Sequence record: OL780484.1
Length of the DNA stretch: 64,000 nt
Reading direction: 5' to 3' (one strand)
From: Escherichia phage vB_EcoM-E33
Shown here: positions 38,854 through 47,375 of the stretch, piece by piece
Numbering within the stretch: position 1 is the first letter of the stretch
How the letters are laid out: each line of letters begins with the position of its first letter
Position numbers and translations under genes: made by a program
Notes under the pieces: generated by a model
The model's input: only the letters and a program-made list of their open reading frames with translations
Told to the model about the DNA's origin: nothing
Database searches by the model: none

Positions 38854-39548
38854 AACACATTACCGCTGTTAGTTTTGAAAACGCGTTTAAGCAAATGAAC
38901 GAAGAAATCCTGGAAGCTCCACAGTTTGCAGTTGATTCTCGTATCGGCCGTTGTTATGAAATTGGTTCTGCTTCGGTAGAAGTACTGGATGCAAGCACCT
39001 ATAAATTCACCGACCCTCGTATTAATCGTATCAACTATGATTATGCCGAATCTTTCTGGAAGTTTATGATTTCTGGTGGTACTGACGCCGCCGAAGCATT
39101 TAAGGAATACCCTAATGTTGCTAAGTTCATTGATAAGCCGAAAAGTGACGTATTGCCTGCAAACTTCAACACTTTCTATGGACCTAGAATTGTGGCCCAA
39201 CTCCCAGCCTTACTTAAAGAGCTTAAAGAGAAGCCTAACTCAAGACGAGTTGTGTTCCAAATTCTCCAAGAACAAGACCAAGCCCTCCTTGATTCTGACG
39301 AATCCTTAGAATATCCATGTACTGATTCAGTGACATATTATATTCGTGATGGACGTCTTTATGCACATACCCATATGCGTTCACAGAACTGTGCTATTGT
39401 TATGCAGCTGGATTTCTATCTGCAGGGTAAACTGATGGCCTTTATTGCTGAACAGTGTGGTGTTGGTCTGGGTACGTATTCCCATACTATGGTTAGTGCA
39501 CACGTATTTGAACGTGATTTTGACTACGTTCGAGGATTCCTGAAATGA
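38850..39548 (+). CDS. thymidylate-synthase-family pyrimidine hydroxymethylase (divergent gp42-like)
   Basis: KPNSRRVVF, catalytic-Cys motif YPCTDSVTYYIRD, MRSQN, SAHVF align to remembered T4 gp42 motifs; low overall identity. Confidence 0.5.
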   Translation: MKHITAVSFENAFKQMNEEILEAPQFAVDSRIGRCYEIGSASVEVLDASTYKFTDPRINRINYDYAESFWKFMISGGTDAAEAFKEYPNVAKFIDKPKSDVLPANFNTFYGPRIVAQLPALLKELKEKPNSRRVVFQILQEQDQALLDSDESLEYPCTDSVTYYIRDGRLYAHTHMRSQNCAIVMQLDFYLQGKLMAFIAEQCGVGLGTYSHTMVSAHVFERDFDYVRGFLK

Positions 39549-40438
39549 GTTTGTTTATCGTTCCTATTTTCAGTATGCGTAGTTACGAAACAGGTGAATA
39601 TGCCGTCCTTAAGGACGGTAATTTTCAACTCCATTTAAACCGTGCTTGCCAAGGTGATTATCTGGCTTATCCTAGAAATTCGAGCGATATCAAAGAATGC
39701 ATTGAATTATTTCCTGAACTGAATTTTGTACCTCTTTGGTATAAAGAAAATGCTTATGAAACTCGTAAACATTTTTGGTCTGAAAATGAGTTCGTTGTTG
39801 ATTCGTTAATCGAATACTATGACTGCTCAGGATTGGTAACCGATATCACAGGTTATGATGGCACTCAGACTGTACAATTCAACTTTAACATTACAATGGA
39901 CCCTGAAGTTCCTCGTTATTATATCGACGAGTTTATTGATACCGACGTGTCCTCAGTTGAACGTTCGATTTATACCACAGTCCTGAATCAATGCCAGAAA
40001 GACGTCCTGGTGTCACGAGGTGCGTCCTCTGATAAGATTTTTGTAGACCAAAAGGTAATTAATCCGGCAGTAATTGAGCGTTACTCTGAAGGCCTAGCGC
40101 CTATTAAAATTGATGGTATTTTCCATCCATTCCGTATCTCTGATAAATGTTATCAATTCGAAAGAGTTGTAGACCAAGCTGCGGCTGAAGGTTCTCGCCT
40201 TTATATCACCGATCCGAATGATTCATTTAAGCGTGAAGACTATCGTCCTGATGTAGAGATTATTAAATTCAAACCGAGTAAGGTTGAATATTATCAGATT
40301 CTGAAATCAAGACCTCATATCATTTATCATGAGAATCCCAGTTTAGTATTTCATCCTGGCCTGGCTGAATTCATTTATTTCGGTGCCCACATCCATTCTG
40401 AGCACGAAATGCCAAGTTATGAGGACGTGGTCCTTTAA
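39545..40438 (+). CDS. hypothetical protein (occupies T4 beta-glucosyltransferase slot)
   Basis: 297-aa ORF coupled to the upstream gene; no motif recognised. Confidence 0.45.
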   Translation: MSLFIVPIFSMRSYETGEYAVLKDGNFQLHLNRACQGDYLAYPRNSSDIKECIELFPELNFVPLWYKENAYETRKHFWSENEFVVDSLIEYYDCSGLVTDITGYDGTQTVQFNFNITMDPEVPRYYIDEFIDTDVSSVERSIYTTVLNQCQKDVLVSRGASSDKIFVDQKVINPAVIERYSEGLAPIKIDGIFHPFRISDKCYQFERVVDQAAAEGSRLYITDPNDSFKREDYRPDVEIIKFKPSKVEYYQILKSRPHIIYHENPSLVFHPGLAEFIYFGAHIHSEHEMPSYEDVVL

Positions 40439-40515: not shown

Positions 40516-41688
40516 ATGTCTGATTTAAAATCCCGTTTGATTAAAGCTTCTACTTCTAAAATGACCGCCGACCTGACCAAATCTAAATTGTTTAATGGTC
40601 GTGACGAAGTTCCTACTCGTATCCCTATGCTGAATATTGCATTAGGCGGTGCGTTGAATGCAGGCTTACAATCAGGTTTGACAATCTTTGCTGCTCCATC
40701 TAAACACTTTAAAACGTTGTTTGGACTTACCATGGTTGCGGCATATATGAAGAAATATCCAGACGCAATTTGTTTGTTCTATGACTCTGAGTTTGGTGCT
40801 TCAGAATCTTATTTCCGTTCGATGGGTGTTGATTTGGAACGTGTGGTTCATACACCAATCCAGTCAGTCGAACAGCTTAAAGTTGATATGACCAACCAGT
40901 TAGAAGAAATTACTCGTGGCGAAAAGGTTATTATCTTTATCGACTCCATTGGTAACACTGCTTCTAAGAAAGAAACCGAAGATGCTTTGAACGAGAAAGT
41001 TGTAGGTGATATGACTCGTGCTAAATCACTGAAATCTCTGTTCCGTATCGTAACACCTTATCTGACCATCAAAGATATCCCTTGTGTAGCAATTAACCAC
41101 ACGGCTATGGAAATTGGTGGAATGTACCCTAAAGAGATTATGGGTGGTGGTACTGGTATTCTGTACTCTGCTTCTACCGTGTTCTTTATCTCTAAACGTC
41201 AGGTTAAAGATGGTACTGAGCTCACTGGTTATGACTTCACACTGAAGGCCGAGAAATCTCGTACGGTTAAAGAGAAATCAACGTTCCCGATTACAGTGAA
41301 CTTCGAAGGTGGTATCGACCCATTCAGTGGATTGCTTGAAATGGCTACTGATATTGGCTTTGTCGTGAAACCTAAAGCTGGCTGGTATAATCGTGCATTC
41401 CTTGACGAAACCACAGGCGAAATGGTTCAAGAAGAAAAAGCATGGCGTGCTAAAGCTACCGATTGTGTCGAGTTCTGGGGACCGCTGTTTAAACATGCCC
41501 CGTTCCGTGAAGCAATCGAGAATAAGTATAAGCTCGGTGCAATTAATTCTATTAAAGAAGTTGACGATGCAGTGAACGACCTTATTAACTCTCGTGTCTC
41601 TAAGAACGTTGCTGTTAAATTAGGTGGTAATGCCCAAAGCGCCGCTGATATCGAAAACGATTTGGAAGAGATGAATTTAGATGACTGA
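40516..41688 (+). CDS. uvsX: recombinase UvsX (RecA-like)
   Basis: 390 aa; MSDLKSRLIKASTSK..., Walker A GPSKxFKT, colinear with remembered T4 UvsX. Confidence 0.95.
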   Translation: MSDLKSRLIKASTSKMTADLTKSKLFNGRDEVPTRIPMLNIALGGALNAGLQSGLTIFAAPSKHFKTLFGLTMVAAYMKKYPDAICLFYDSEFGASESYFRSMGVDLERVVHTPIQSVEQLKVDMTNQLEEITRGEKVIIFIDSIGNTASKKETEDALNEKVVGDMTRAKSLKSLFRIVTPYLTIKDIPCVAINHTAMEIGGMYPKEIMGGGTGILYSASTVFFISKRQVKDGTELTGYDFTLKAEKSRTVKEKSTFPITVNFEGGIDPFSGLLEMATDIGFVVKPKAGWYNRAFLDETTGEMVQEEKAWRAKATDCVEFWGPLFKHAPFREAIENKYKLGAINSIKEVDDAVNDLINSRVSKNVAVKLGGNAQSAADIENDLEEMNLDD

Positions 41689-42010
41689 TTTATCTGATTT
41701 AGATAATTTCGTTAAAGATACCGAAGAGGGTCCTAGTGACCCTCGTTATTATGAGAAATCATTAGATATAATCCGTAAGTCAATGGGTTCTGTTAAGCAG
41801 GAAATTATGCTTACTTTACCCGATGGCACTGCTCACATCGTTTATGTGATGAATATTGTTATTGAGAAAGATGGAAAAGTGTCGGTTGATTTCGGAACAC
41901 CTTCCGAAGACCGAAAAGAAGAGCTAGCGCTTCATGTAGAAAAATGTGTTACAATGCAAATACAAGAAGAACTGGATAAAATTAAATCTAAGAGGTGGTG
42001 GAAGTGGTAG
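41681..42010 (+). CDS. gp40-like protein (by position between uvsX and 41)
   Basis: 109-aa ORF overlapping both neighbours. Confidence 0.4.
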   Translation: MTDLSDLDNFVKDTEEGPSDPRYYEKSLDIIRKSMGSVKQEIMLTLPDGTAHIVYVMNIVIEKDGKVSVDFGTPSEDRKEELALHVEKCVTMQIQEELDKIKSKRWWKW

Positions 42011-43434
42011 AAACTATTTTGGCTCAACTGCTAGGCAATAGTGATTATTTCACTAAGGTCTGGCCTTATATGAATGATTCTTATTTTGACCAGGGTCCTG
42101 CAAAGACCCTTTTCAAAGAAATTAAAAAACACGTCAATGAATATAATGCAGTGCCTTCTAAGAACGCATTGAGCATTGCATTAGATAACAGTACGCTTTC
42201 AGAAGTTGAACATCAAGGCGCTAAAGAGCTTTTAAGTTCGCTGAACGCCGGGCCTGAAGACCAAGAATGGTTGGTTAAAGAGACGGAGAAATACGTTCAG
42301 AAAGCAGCGATGTATAATGCAACTTCAAAAATCATTGAAATCCAAACTAATGCCGACCTTCCAGTTGAGCAACAAAATAGAAAACTTCCAGGTATTGGTG
42401 CTATTCCAGATATCATGCGTGATGCATTATCGATTTGTTTCGATTCTGAATTAGGTCATGACTGGATGGATGACTATGAAGAACGATTCAAAAGTTATTC
42501 CGATAAAGCACGTAAGGTTCCGTTCCGTCTTAATATTCTGAATAAGATTACCAAAGGTGGTGCTGAGTTTGGTACTGAAAACGTATTGTTGGCAGGAACA
42601 AACGTAGGTAAGTCTCTTGGTCTTTGTTCATTGGCTGCTGATTACCTTCAATCTGGTTACGATGTTCTTTATATCTCCATGGAGATGGCAGAGGAAGTAT
42701 GTGCTAAGCGTATCGATGCCAACCTTCTGGACGTGTCGCTGGATGATATCGATGATGGTCACGTCTCGTGGCCTGAATATAAAGCTAAGATGGATAAATG
42801 GCGTTCAACTGCTACTTTAGGTCGTTTAAAGATTAAACAGTATCCTACTGGCGGTGCTAATGCCGATACATTCCGTGCATTATTAAACGAATACAAGCTC
42901 AAACAAAACTTTGTCCCACAGGTCGTTATCGTTGACTACTTGGCTATCTGTGCATCGTCTCGTACGAAAGTTTTCTCTGAAAACAGTTACGGATTGATTA
43001 AGATGGTTGCTGAAGAACTACGTGGACTTGCAGTAGAGAAGAAATTACTGTTGTGGACTGCAGCCCAGACTACTCGTGGTGCGAACGTTGCAGCCGAAAT
43101 CGATATGGCCGATATTGCTGAATCCTTTGGTATTGCACATACTGCAGACTTCATGTTGGGTGTGGTCGAGACAGAAGAGTTCGCTCAGATGGGTATGCAG
43201 ATGGTTAAGCAGCTTAAATCTCGTTATGGCGATAAGAGCTACTACAACAAATTTAAGATTGGTGTTAAGAAAGGAAATCAACGTTGGTACGAAGTTGAAG
43301 ATGATTCCAACCCAGGCCCAGTGAACACTGTTCGTGAGGCTACAGGTGAGATGAATCGCCAGGCCGAGGTCAATCGACAGACGCGTGTTAATAGAAGTGA
43401 TTTGGACGATTTAGCAGCATCTATCAAATTTTAA
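41995..43434 (+). CDS. 41: replicative DNA helicase gp41
   Basis: 479 aa; Walker A GTNVGKS, YISMEMAEEVCAKRIDAN, colinear with remembered T4 gp41. Confidence 0.95.
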   Translation: MVEVVETILAQLLGNSDYFTKVWPYMNDSYFDQGPAKTLFKEIKKHVNEYNAVPSKNALSIALDNSTLSEVEHQGAKELLSSLNAGPEDQEWLVKETEKYVQKAAMYNATSKIIEIQTNADLPVEQQNRKLPGIGAIPDIMRDALSICFDSELGHDWMDDYEERFKSYSDKARKVPFRLNILNKITKGGAEFGTENVLLAGTNVGKSLGLCSLAADYLQSGYDVLYISMEMAEEVCAKRIDANLLDVSLDDIDDGHVSWPEYKAKMDKWRSTATLGRLKIKQYPTGGANADTFRALLNEYKLKQNFVPQVVIVDYLAICASSRTKVFSENSYGLIKMVAEELRGLAVEKKLLLWTAAQTTRGANVAAEIDMADIAESFGIAHTADFMLGVVETEEFAQMGMQMVKQLKSRYGDKSYYNKFKIGVKKGNQRWYEVEDDSNPGPVNTVREATGEMNRQAEVNRQTRVNRSDLDDLAASIKF

Positions 43435-43454
43435 GGAGCTTCGGCTCCTTTTTT
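43435..43454 (+). terminator. rho-independent terminator
   Basis: GGAGC-ttcg-GCTCC followed by T6. Confidence 0.7.
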
Positions 43455-43463
43455 GTTTTAAGG

Positions 43464-43492
43464 GTTTACATCTCCTGTAGGCGTGATACTAT
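43464..43492 (+). promoter_or_regulatory. early promoter (GTTTAC ... TGATACTAT)
   Basis: -35 43464-43469, -10 43487-43492, conserved block. Confidence 0.55.
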
Positions 43493-43516
43493 AGACCTAT
43501 CAACTTGGAGAACAAA

Positions 43517-43834
43517 ATGAAAACCATCGACTGTAAAGCAGAATATAAAGTGTATTATCATGGAAGTTGTAGTGTTGCTAATATCGGTAATATGCTTTGT
43601 CCTCCTGAGGAAACAGGAGTTCTGTCTGAAACCAGTCGTAAGAAAAACCTGAATCGTGTGTTCTTTACTGAAGATATCGGTTTGGCTAAGATTTATGCTG
43701 GACGTGCAGCCCGTTCAGTGGGAGGAGAACCTCGTCTTTATCGTGTAATTGCTCCGGTAGATGTGGTTTGTTTAAATGATACTAAAGGCGCTACGGTTTA
43801 TCATGCTGAATGGGCCTTCTGTGAGGAAATCTAA
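43517..43834 (+). CDS. hypothetical protein
   Basis: 106 aa from ATG 43517 after GGAGA SD; lies between 41 and dmd. Confidence 0.45.
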   Translation: MKTIDCKAEYKVYYHGSCSVANIGNMLCPPEETGVLSETSRKKNLNRVFFTEDIGLAKIYAGRAARSVGGEPRLYRVIAPVDVVCLNDTKGATVYHAEWAFCEEI

Positions 43835-44038
43835 ATGCCTAAATTAGAGAAAGTAGTGTTTATTGGTTGGTTTGAAAATGGTAATATGTTTACCAAAGAA
43901 ACCGTTCTGGATGTTAGTGACCAAAATATGATTGAATGGGTTACAGTGCAGTATGCAGAAGTGAATAATGCGCTGGTGAAAGCCTTTGTTGATGACAATA
44001 AAGTTTTTGAGTGTGATTACCGTTCTAACGAAAAATAA
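43835..44038 (+). CDS. dmd: Dmd antitoxin (anti-RnlA/LsoA)
   Basis: 67 aa; KVVFxGWFxNxxMFTKE...TQYAEVNxALVKAFxDDxKV matches remembered T4 Dmd; position between 41 and 61. Confidence 0.6.
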   Translation: MPKLEKVVFIGWFENGNMFTKETVLDVSDQNMIEWVTVQYAEVNNALVKAFVDDNKVFECDYRSNEK

Positions 44039-44040
44039 CA

Positions 44041-44070
44041 GTTTACATCAAAGGGATAATGCAGTATATT
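44041..44070 (+). promoter_or_regulatory. early promoter (GTTTAC ... TATATT) with inverted repeat GGGATAAT/ATTATCCC
   Basis: -35 44041-44046, -10 44065-44070. Confidence 0.5.
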
Positions 44071-44098
44071 ATCCCTATCAACTACCGAGGAGAACATT

Positions 44099-44392
44099 AT
44101 GAAAAAGTTATTAATCGCAGCAATTCTTGCCGTAGCATCATGTGGTACAGCCCCAGTTACTGCTGGACTTGATAAAGACCTTTGTGAATGGTCTATGACT
44201 GCAGACCAAGAATCAGTCGAACATCAGATTTATGCTGATATCATGAACATCACTAAACGTGACCGCCCTGATATGGTTAAAGAAGTGTCAGACCAATTGG
44301 CTTCAAGCGGCGTTATGCAGTATAACTATGTTCTGTATTGTGACGCTAATTTCGATAACAAAAACATCGTTAAAGAGGTGACAGGTGAATAA
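44099..44392 (+). CDS. Spackle-like periplasmic protein
   Basis: 97 aa with signal peptide/lipobox VASC; size and position match T4 sp (61.3). Confidence 0.4.
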   Translation: MKKLLIAAILAVASCGTAPVTAGLDKDLCEWSMTADQESVEHQIYADIMNITKRDRPDMVKEVSDQLASSGVMQYNYVLYCDANFDNKNIVKEVTGE

Positions 44393-44825
44393 GATTAACA
44401 GAAATTTAGTTATCAAAAAACTTCGTTGTAAAAATCCAAATGCACAGGCATACAGGATGTTTTGGAGCGACGACCACCAATACCTAGGTTATTTTCTTGT
44501 TGATAGTGATGATAGAATTACAATGGCTCATAAACTTCTTAACAGAGAATTAAACCATTGGCAAGAACTTATTGCGGTGAGGTCTAAATTATTTTCATGC
44601 AATACAATGCACCAATTGGTTTATTTTTTCGCCGATGGTATTCCTGACAAGGTTGAGTTTGATGGGTTTGAATTTAAAGACATCCTCCCGGACAACGAAT
44701 TGAACGACTGTGTTAATATGGATATCCCTAGCAAGTATATCAAAAACAGTCTGTTGAAAATTCTGGAAGCTCCGGTTTATTCAATTGACGACCAGATTTT
44801 TAATGCCTTTATGAATCGAGGTTAA
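44385..44825 (+). CDS. hypothetical protein
   Basis: 146-aa ORF. Confidence 0.45.
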   Translation: MNKINRNLVIKKLRCKNPNAQAYRMFWSDDHQYLGYFLVDSDDRITMAHKLLNRELNHWQELIAVRSKLFSCNTMHQLVYFFADGIPDKVEFDGFEFKDILPDNELNDCVNMDIPSKYIKNSLLKILEAPVYSIDDQIFNAFMNRG

Positions 44826-46718: not shown

Positions 46719-47375
46719 ATGAATTACGAAAAAATATACCAGGAATTAATATCTAAAGGAAAATTAAGAGGTTCTAAGCGGTCTTTATCATATTATACGG
46801 AAGAACACCATGTTATACCTAGATGTATGAATGGTTCTGATGATAAAAACAATTTAGTTGCTTTATTGCCAAGAGAACACTTTGTAGCTCATAGGCTTTT
46901 AACAAAAATATATCCCGAAGTAAAAGGTCTACATTATGCTGTTAATTTAATGAGATATAATAAAGGAGTTAAATTAACTAGTAGAACTATAGCCACGTTA
47001 AGAGAAAATAACGCTAAAGCATTTTCAGGAAAAAATAACCCGATGTTTGGTAAACCTTCCTGGATTAGAGGGATGAAAACTCCTGAAGAAACTAAAGCCA
47101 AAATGCGCCTGGCTCATAAAGATAAAATTATATCTGATGAAGCCAAGGCCAATATGAGTAAAGCTAGAAAAGGAAGATTTAGTGGTAAAGATTCCCCTAG
47201 ATATGGTTTGCCGAATCCTAGGCGTGGAGAAATATGGAATAGTTACGATATGCTTTACGAATTATGGGTTTACAATAATAAACCTAAACGCACCAAATTT
47301 AATAAAATAGCTGTTGATAATGGATATCCTGATATTTGTTATCGACGAATGATAGAAAACTTTAATAGGAAATAA
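46719..47375 (+). CDS. Mob-type HNH homing endonuclease
   Basis: HNH motif EEHHVIPRCMNGSDDKNNLVALLPREH; NUMOD3-like GKNNPMFGK; AT-rich; paralog of 11078-11842. Confidence 0.7.
   Translation: MNYEKIYQELISKGKLRGSKRSLSYYTEEHHVIPRCMNGSDDKNNLVALLPREHFVAHRLLTKIYPEVKGLHYAVNLMRYNKGVKLTSRTIATLRENNAKAFSGKNNPMFGKPSWIRGMKTPEETKAKMRLAHKDKIISDEAKANMSKARKGRFSGKDSPRYGLPNPRRGEIWNSYDMLYELWVYNNKPKRTKFNKIAVDNGYPDICYRRMIENFNRK

Follow-up and report, generated by a model that had tools for sequence, protein, structure and literature searches.

We analysed a 64,000-nucleotide stretch of Escherichia phage vB_EcoM-E33 (sequence record OL780484.1), hereafter the window, which represents a JS98-like (Dhakavirus) phage and is 99.3% identical over the region discussed here to Escherichia phage LHE83. 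Between helicase gene 41 and the antitoxin gene dmd it carries a small gene whose product is, with very high confidence, an ADP-ribosyltransferase (ART)-fold protein related to Arr; we refer to it as the ART gene. A sequence-only reading of the window had singled out an extra open reading frame (ORF) at this place, and the ORF is indeed real, as it matches phrog_2110 over its full length (2e-59) and has homologues in 609 phage records, far above chance. The 106 aa given in that reading had counted the stop codon; the protein has 105 residues and begins with MKTIDCKAEYKVYYHGSCSV, as was quoted there. Nor is the gene an oddity of one genome, as had been supposed, since it belongs to a widespread and highly conserved family.

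43517–43834, + strand: ART gene, ATG start, stop codon included, 105 aa.

The ART gene product has an Arr-related fold

Taken alone, the window protein matched the Pfam Arr-ms family below threshold (E = 0.039, 14.6 bits, cutoff 25), and a first family profile (A1) matched no PDB sequence, including none of Tpt1. A broader profile (A2), comprising 42 sequences down to 36% identity and searched against 177,635 PDB sequences, matched Arr-ms (2HW2/9IAF) at E = 0.0024 and Arr-2 at E = 0.054, and these were the sole PDB families found. An AlphaFold2 model computed from a 37-sequence alignment (predicted local distance difference test (pLDDT) 85.6, predicted template modelling score (pTM) 0.77) displayed the split β-sheet typical of the ART fold. 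The top Foldseek matches of this model in the PDB were crystal structures of Arr (probability 1.00, TM-score ~0.6), followed by Tpt1, pertussis toxin, RES and ParT; DarT was likewise among the fold-level matches. The link to Arr is significant because of profile A2 and the structure searches, and not because of the single sequence. Additionally, searching 1.84 billion cluster representatives exhaustively with a profile returned 244 relatives. Among the 11 relatives that were scanned whole, five exceeded the Pfam Arr-ms gathering score of 25 (26.9–31.5 bits), and the ones that passed are the more distant, fused members. Collectively, the phage ART family shares ancestry with Arr and resembles the NAD+ lobe of Tpt1/KptA.

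Many relatives are domains of giant polyvalent proteins

Many of the 244 relatives are not free-standing and form domains inside proteins of 500–3,900 aa, with ART-PolyVal, NUDIX, CHAP, GNAT, Toprim and DUF7178 as fusion partners. ART-PolyVal shares a protein with the relatives P0134, P0137, P0148 and P0155. A 3,735-aa relative is encoded directly behind the tail-tube genes and a 1,393-aa protein on a 112-kb phage contig, and another fused relative sits in a phage replication module. Polyvalent proteins have been proposed to enter the cell together with the DNA, where they would modify the host and act against its defences, and the ART family described in them differs from the Arr-like domain (Iyer et al. 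2017, PMC5512222). The Arr-like domain within polyvalent proteins is an observation added to that work. By analogy, sharing proteins with ART-PolyVal implies that the Arr-like domain may be deployed in a similar manner, as an effector at the stage of infection.

Two further fusions were seen among the loci collected. The first, of 850 aa, has three distinct ART-like H-G-T/H-A-T modules and is encoded on a 62-kb large-phage contig (L066, 2455–5007); the other is a 602-aa Toprim/primase-like protein with ART at its C-terminus (L065 and L067, 1495–3303; contigs of 461 kb and 230 kb).

Conserved residues outline a predicted active site

H15, G16, E38, F49, T51, A57, Y60, A61, G69 and G91 do not vary among the relatives, even those only 36% identical, and P29, P30, R41, K43, N44, L45, R63 and G70 are nearly invariant in the family. 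This pattern fits an enzyme or a ligand pocket. Three codon groups encode the putative active-site motifs.

43556–43567, + strand: codons of Y14-H15-G16-S17, the strand-1 Y-H-G-[ST] NAD+-binding motif; H15-G16 corresponds to H19-G20 of Arr-ms by alignment.
43628–43639, + strand: codons of E38-T39-S40-R41, the E-x-G-R loop motif, common to Arr-ms (E40-A-G-R43) and Arr-2 (E-D-G-R).
43661–43696, + strand: codons from F49-F50-T51 (strand 2) through Y60 (helix), an aromatic-X10-Tyr pair.

The strand-1 His of the ART superfamily (H-G-[ST]) is present as H15, which aligns with H19 of Arr-ms, and all of the 141 distant relatives compared have T or S at position 17. F49 aligns with Y49 of Arr-ms and Y60 with its W59. 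Of 147 distant relatives, 139 have F and 8 have Y at position 49, and Y60 is found in 141 of 145. Phe49 is aromatic and lacks a hydroxyl; Y60 follows 11 residues on, which is the spacing of the classical Y-X10-Y motif. Further motifs common to Arr by alignment are [VI]-[FY]-x-[TS], a helix Ala plus an aromatic residue, and V-E-P-x-G. After residue 70 there is no invariant acid: D82 (D/E/N), N87 (N/S/Q) and D88 are partly conserved, and the invariant E38 lies in the loop between strands 1 and 2. A catalytic role is predicted for the E-x-G-R loop.

We consider it likely, with some reserve, that the protein is catalytically active. An inactive ART fold that binds NAD+, ADP-ribose or an ADP-ribose-derived signal as a sponge or decoy, or that blocks a host protein, appears rather unlikely. 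Sponges that soak up immune nucleotides are well known from phages, and the protein is very small; its strand-2 position, Tyr or His in active ARTs, is Phe throughout most of the family, which leaves room for a non-catalytic sponge or decoy, and the C-terminal strands have no conserved acidic residue. However, the H-G-[ST] motif and the E-x-G-R loop are kept in relatives down to 36% identity, Tpt1-type ARTs of the H-H-h clade work without a catalytic acid (PMC9503650), and polyvalent proteins pair the domain with enzymatic effector domains. The Phe itself could still stack on nicotinamide.

The family is widespread and strongly conserved

ART homologues were detected by tblastn in 609 of 50,697 phage records, the hosts being Escherichia (215), Klebsiella (116), Acinetobacter (68) and Aeromonas (62), with further records among Enterobacter, Cronobacter, Vibrio and Citrobacter phages. 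Carriers include RB69, whose ORF040c is the orthologue, as well as JS98-like and RB16/RB43-like members of the T4-like phages. gp41-like helicases occur in 2,456 phage records. ART is a widespread accessory gene, present in about a quarter of T4-like phages and absent from T4 at this position. Its location varies: in Acinetobacter phage Ac42 it lies in the region between genes 41 and 61 with no annotated dmd, and in Aeromonas phage phiAS4 its surroundings are entirely different. phrog_2110 has no assigned function, and a few GenBank depositors already label the gene "(putative) ADP-ribosyl transferase" or "rifampin ADP-ribosyl transferase".

Judged by percentage identity, ART matches or exceeds the replicative helicase in conservation. 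In two of the loci studied below (L015 and L016) ART is 80–82% identical versus 69% for gp41, and in RB16-type phages it is ~70% identical versus 54%. Such constraint on an accessory gene implies a conserved, important target. Recent horizontal acquisition was considered and rejected, because the GC content of the ART gene (0.41) is ordinary and like that of the adjoining genes, and because ART follows the phage phylogeny roughly as gp41 does.

Gene organisation and expression signals

The ART gene lies downstream of a T4-type replication/recombination block and directly upstream of dmd.

40516–41688: uvsX, of the T4-type replication/recombination block.
41681–42010: gene 40, of the same block.
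41995–43434, + strand: gene 41 (gp41), DnaB_C match, upstream of ART.
43433–43460, + strand: intrinsic-terminator-like hairpin AAGGAGC-TTCG-GCTCCTT (hairpin 43433–43450) plus T-run, directly 3' of the gene 41 stop codon.
43465–43492, + strand: T4-type early (σ70-like) promoter (G)TTTACA-16 nt-TACTAT, 9 of 12 consensus matches, TG before the −10 hexamer.
43507–43510, + strand: Shine-Dalgarno GGAG, 6 nt 5' of the ATG, read from the sequence, identical in RB69.
43835–44038, + strand: dmd, 67 aa, Pfam Dmd 4.7e-22, its ATG directly after the ART stop codon (TAA-ATG, 0-nt spacing).
44099–44392: Spackle, Pfam T4_Spackle 9.5e-43.

The hairpin after gene 41 has a 7-bp stem with 4 GC pairs followed by the T-run, and RB69 has an equivalent one 3' of its gene 41. 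The promoter that follows is predicted to drive both the ART gene and dmd. RB69 ORF040c is preceded by a conserved promoter, GTTTACT...TATTATAGACCTATCA, and the T4 counterpart, GTTTACA...TATAGT, sits in the same place directly before dmd. A longer ORF with a TTG start at 43505 is possible; we prefer the ATG because of the GGAG and because all of the 600+ homologues favour it. With a single predicted promoter and abutting reading frames, ART and dmd appear to be co-transcribed and are probably translationally coupled. A second terminator-like hairpin, CTCCTG-AGGAAA-CAGGAG with a T-rich tail, was seen within the ART coding sequence (43602–43619, +); it is probably a chance match, because 0.7 are expected per shuffle of the region.

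Several elements of the sequence-only reading hold up in this comparison. It had stated that dmd directly follows gene 41 in T4, and the T4 gap is indeed only 58 bp and contains the early promoter alone; the ART gene is therefore "extra" relative to T4, and seems to have been inserted between the T4-position early promoter and dmd. The ORF had been described as promoter-headed, which agrees with the early-type consensus site and its conservation in RB69. The neighbourhood had been called an anti-defence and superinfection-exclusion hotspot, and genes 41 and 61 enclose a variable accessory-gene stretch with dmd, spackle and the position of adfA. A ubiquitous gene with a known, unrelated function had been named as what would speak against a counter-defence role; the family proves to be widespread and has no known function.

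Linkage to Dmd is lineage-specific

Iyer et al. 2022 (PMC9503650, section 3.7.1) proposed that a "p0068-family ART" is a toxin and the adjacent Dmd its antitoxin. We examined the pairing in 66 dereplicated IMG/VR loci carrying ART, in which Dmd was scored as a hidden Markov model (HMM) match with E of 0.01 or better within 3 kb. Dmd was found near ART in 11 loci, each time immediately downstream, and in none of the other 55. The genes 3' of ART fall into 29 unrelated clusters. In L015 and L016 the gene of a 96-aa signal-peptide protein overlaps the ART stop codon by 4 nt, and in RB69 and mar005P1 ART and dmd overlap by 4 nt. Tight coupling of ART and dmd is thus real but lineage-specific, and dmd is a neighbour, not an obligatory partner.

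A type II toxin-antitoxin pair in which ART is the toxin and Dmd the antitoxin, serving for example superinfection exclusion (PMC9503650), therefore strikes us as very improbable. It is true that the two genes are packed as closely as possible where both occur (0 nt here, the 4-nt overlap in RB69 and mar005P1) and share one promoter, that Dmd is a proven antitoxin-like protein, that related ART domains act as toxins (ParT, RES and DarT are among the fold matches), and that the proposal for an ART next to Dmd is already in print. Nevertheless, co-occurrence fails both ways. ART usually lacks Dmd, as the 11 of 66 loci show, and Klebsiella, Acinetobacter and Aeromonas, which account for 116, 68 and 62 ART records, are absent from the ten commonest organism names among Dmd matches. 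Conversely, Dmd is found in 798 phage records, nearly all of them Escherichia, Shigella and Yersinia phages including T4, whose 58-bp gap holds no ART; it occurs in 596 Escherichia records versus 215 for ART, so that many Dmd phages must be without ART. No alternative conserved partner stands beside ART, given the 29 downstream clusters and the signal-peptide protein of L015 and L016. The established target of Dmd, RnlA/LsoA, is independent of ART, and it is hard to see why a strictly lytic phage would have to neutralise a toxin of its own that is directed at the host. The coupling is better explained by a shared immediate-early promoter: in T4 the same promoter serves dmd, whose product is required as soon as infection begins (PMC9503650; 10.1101/2025.11.20.689424). 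The evidence gathered contains no link from the ART gene to neutralisation of RnlA/LsoA-type toxins.

A second, longer Dmd-like ORF (110–113 aa) was observed directly after dmd in L013 (3532–3873) and L017 (3492–3824), with HMM E-values of 1e-14 and 1e-07, and two dmd genes are annotated in AP019521 (KIT01) and OR427838 (fDHCT2). These cases suggest that the antitoxin has been tandemly duplicated or diversified.

Proposed function

We give an even chance to the reading that the ART gene encodes an early NAD+-dependent effector that acts on a host or defence component independently of Dmd. The stand-alone, minimal 105-aa ART-fold enzyme would be made immediately after infection from its own early promoter, with dmd on the same message. 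It would bind NAD+ through the strand-1 Y-H-G-[ST] motif, the Phe49/Tyr60 pair and the E-x-G-R loop, and would move ADP-ribose to a conserved component of the host cell or of its defences, thereby favouring infection or disarming immunity. Its action would be like that of effector domains which reach the cell within the giant polyvalent virion proteins of other phages. ART would work independently of Dmd, and the two would have the promoter in common in some lineages because both are needed first. The suggestion of an anti-defence role comes from context, namely the early promoter, the accessory-gene stretch and the polyvalent-protein relatives.

Several points weigh against this reading. Activity of Arr-ms needs H19, Y49 and D84 (Baysarowich 2008 as cited in PMC13246000), and two of these three residues are not kept: Y49 is replaced by Phe, and D84 has no alignable conserved acid, the region being L86/N87. 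The ART protein could therefore be a binder and not a transferase. Confidence in the model is lowest for the loop with E38 and R41 (residues 31–40, mean pLDDT 63), and the promoter at 43465–43492 is a consensus match only. Additionally, a literature search on the family (RB69ORF040c, Arr-like phage ARTs, Dmd with ART, anti-defence ARTs of RB69) found no experimental work.

Within the effector reading, the nature of the acceptor deserves attention. The lack of a classical catalytic acid, the invariant or nearly invariant basic residues R41, K43 and R63, and Tpt1 as the best structural match make a non-protein acceptor, either a nucleic-acid end phosphate or a small molecule, a serious sub-hypothesis. 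In its boldest form, which we regard as rather unlikely, the protein would represent a new functional type of minimal ART of ~95–105 aa, among the smallest known, with an H-F-x site and an invariant E-x-G-R loop and without a classical acid; its acceptor for ADP-ribose would be the terminal phosphate of a nucleic acid or an immune signal derived from a nucleotide. If this were true, about a quarter of T4-like phages would gain an unrecognised immediate-early counter-defence or RNA-protection activity that complements Dmd.

A narrower sub-case of the effector reading is a nucleic-acid end modifier that transfers ADP-ribose to an RNA or DNA terminal phosphate in the manner of Tpt1/KptA. Beside Dmd, which protects mRNA, such an enzyme might for example shield or cap RNA ends or keep the host from repairing or degrading RNA. 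The missing acid, as in Tpt1, and the three basic residues suit this idea, Toprim/primase-like fusions exist (P0163, L065), and RNA substrates have been speculated for Dmd-linked ARTs (Iyer et al., PMC9503650). Yet Tpt1 gave no sequence-level match and the idea is purely inferential; we consider it unlikely.

Neighbouring genes and other observations

In 12 of the 66 loci, from Aeromonas T4-like and RB16/RB43-type phages, a gene for a 250–300-aa protein lies directly 5' of ART on the same strand.

L004 2183–2941 (phiAS4_ORF0096), L021, L026 (RB16), L028–L032, L046, L047, L056 and L057 (RB43): loci with the upstream neighbour.

The gap to ART is 17–36 nt in 11 of these loci and 112 nt in L057 (RB43). 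The neighbour belongs to phrog_7204/phrog_7439, which are function-less, and has no Pfam match and no meaningful PDB sequence match. It was considered as the ADP-ribosylglycohydrolase mentioned by Iyer et al. as an antitoxin or eraser partner, and was set aside for lack of a Pfam match and of any function in its PHROGs. By eye, it shows palm-like motifs of family-B DNA polymerases (FRNLYGS/SLMYP, KYLINSVFG, NVDEI/SVDSF). The neighbour may be a functional partner of ART in those lineages.

Downstream of dmd, the window differs from its relatives. The genes 61.4, imm.1 and imm are not found between dmd and spackle (44039–44098), where an early-type promoter, TTTACA-17-TATATT, lies at 44042–44070; RB69 has all three genes there and T4 has 61.4 (compared in L001 4008–4959 and L002 2679–2936). 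At 44385–44825 (+), where T4 and RB69 have gene 61.2/adfA (anti-DarT factor A), the window encodes a 146-aa phrog_8539 protein that has only its last 14 residues in common with Pfam AdfA (E = 0.007). This protein may be a replaced or highly diverged anti-DarT-type module. The interval between genes 41 and 61 is a gene-shuffling hotspot.

Two more distant ORFs were also noted. A 218-aa ORF just 3' of primase gene 61 (46719–47375, +) contains NUMOD3 (Pfam 1.3e-06) and an HNH-like "EEHHVIPRCMNG...N" pattern, and is probably a free-standing homing endonuclease. A 297-aa ORF directly 5' of uvsX (39545–40438, +) occupies the position of the T4 β-glucosyltransferase and has no Pfam match at E ≤ 0.001.

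Significance

ADP-ribosylation lies at the heart of phage–host conflict: phages use Alt, ModA, ModB and AcrIF11, hosts use DarT and CmdT, and AdfN and AdfM act as erasers. Phage-encoded ARTs are thus known as a kind, and the present family was already on record from computational work and from some GenBank annotations; neither the HIDEN-SEQ preprint nor the AdfN paper deals with the gene. New here are a firm connection to Arr and Tpt1 by structure and profile, the features that set the active site apart (H-F-x together with E-x-G-R), the fusions within polyvalent proteins and the quantitative argument against the Dmd-antitoxin reading.

The gene adds a fourth ART type to T4-like phages and is found in RB69, in JS98-type phages and in many therapy-candidate phages of Klebsiella, Acinetobacter and Aeromonas. 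It is small and easily expressed or deleted in tractable phages (RB69, BASEL Mosigvirus), so that both its function and the toxin-antitoxin hypothesis are directly testable. A specialist would probably see a reasonable experimental target and no surprise. The "rifampin ADP-ribosyl transferase" labels in phage genomes call for caution against reading these genes as antibiotic-resistance genes.

Comparison with known systems

Arr (PF12120; Arr-ms 2HW2/9IAF, Arr-2 9IBA) is the closest known family. It shares the E-x-G-R and Y-H-G-T motifs, which among the matches are specific to Arr. However, the phage protein has 105 residues versus 143 in Arr-ms and is therefore 38 shorter, the alignments reach no further than Arr residue 82 and leave out D84 and the C-terminal part, and the NCBIfam rifampin_ARR equivalog scores 12.6 bits against a cutoff of 130. 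The phage protein was accordingly rejected as an Arr orthologue, in view of its length, the sub-cutoff Pfam and NCBIfam scores, and the retention of only the His of H19/Y49/D84, and there is no reason to expect rifamycin as its substrate.

These likenesses and differences also bear on whether the phage protein modifies a small molecule, such as a rifamycin-type RNA-polymerase inhibitor, which would protect the host RNA polymerase that the phage needs, or a nucleotide-derived immune signal. The shared motifs speak for it, as do the facts that Arr is the only family detected by sequence and also a top structural match, and that diffusible compounds have been considered as possible substrates of phage Arr homologues (Iyer et al. 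2022, PMC9503650). Against it stand the shortened length, the equivalog score and the loss of Y49 and D84, together with the occurrence of the domain in injected polyvalent proteins beside protein-modifying ARTs, which points to intracellular macromolecular targets. We judge a small-molecule substrate to be decidedly unlikely.

Tpt1/KptA has two lobes, of which the N-terminal RNA lobe carries an Arg-His-Arg-Arg tetrad, whereas the phage ART is a single lobe without the RNA lobe; for this reason, identity with Tpt1 was rejected. There is no sequence-level match between the two, and the second active-site position is Phe in the phage ART and His in Tpt1. AcrIF11, an anti-CRISPR ADP-ribosyltransferase (6KYF), is alike in fold alone, with no detectable sequence similarity, and its hosts and defence context differ. 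The PADLOC defence models gave no match for the ART protein.

Alt, ModA and ModB of T4 are ARTs of T4-like phages that act early on host proteins and are in this sense functional analogues of the phage ART. They belong to the R-S-E clade (PMC5512222, PMC9503650), are far bigger and map to other parts of the genome, and they were absent from the sequence matches and the top structural matches of the phage ART. ART-PolyVal (PF18760) is a separate H-Y-D family that occurs in the same giant proteins as relatives of the phage ART; unlike those proteins, the window gene is free-standing and its product is apparently expressed from the injected genome, not packaged.

The closest described counterpart is the p0068-like ART (Iyer, Burroughs, Anantharaman, Aravind 2022, PMC9503650), which occurs in the same phage groups (Escherichia, Shigella and Salmonella T4-like phages) and also beside Dmd. 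It was placed in the H-Y-[EDQ] clade (PMC9503650), whereas the window family has a strand-2 Phe and no conserved E, D or Q was found in it. Judged by phage range and position, the p0068-family ART is almost certainly the same gene family as the ART of the window.

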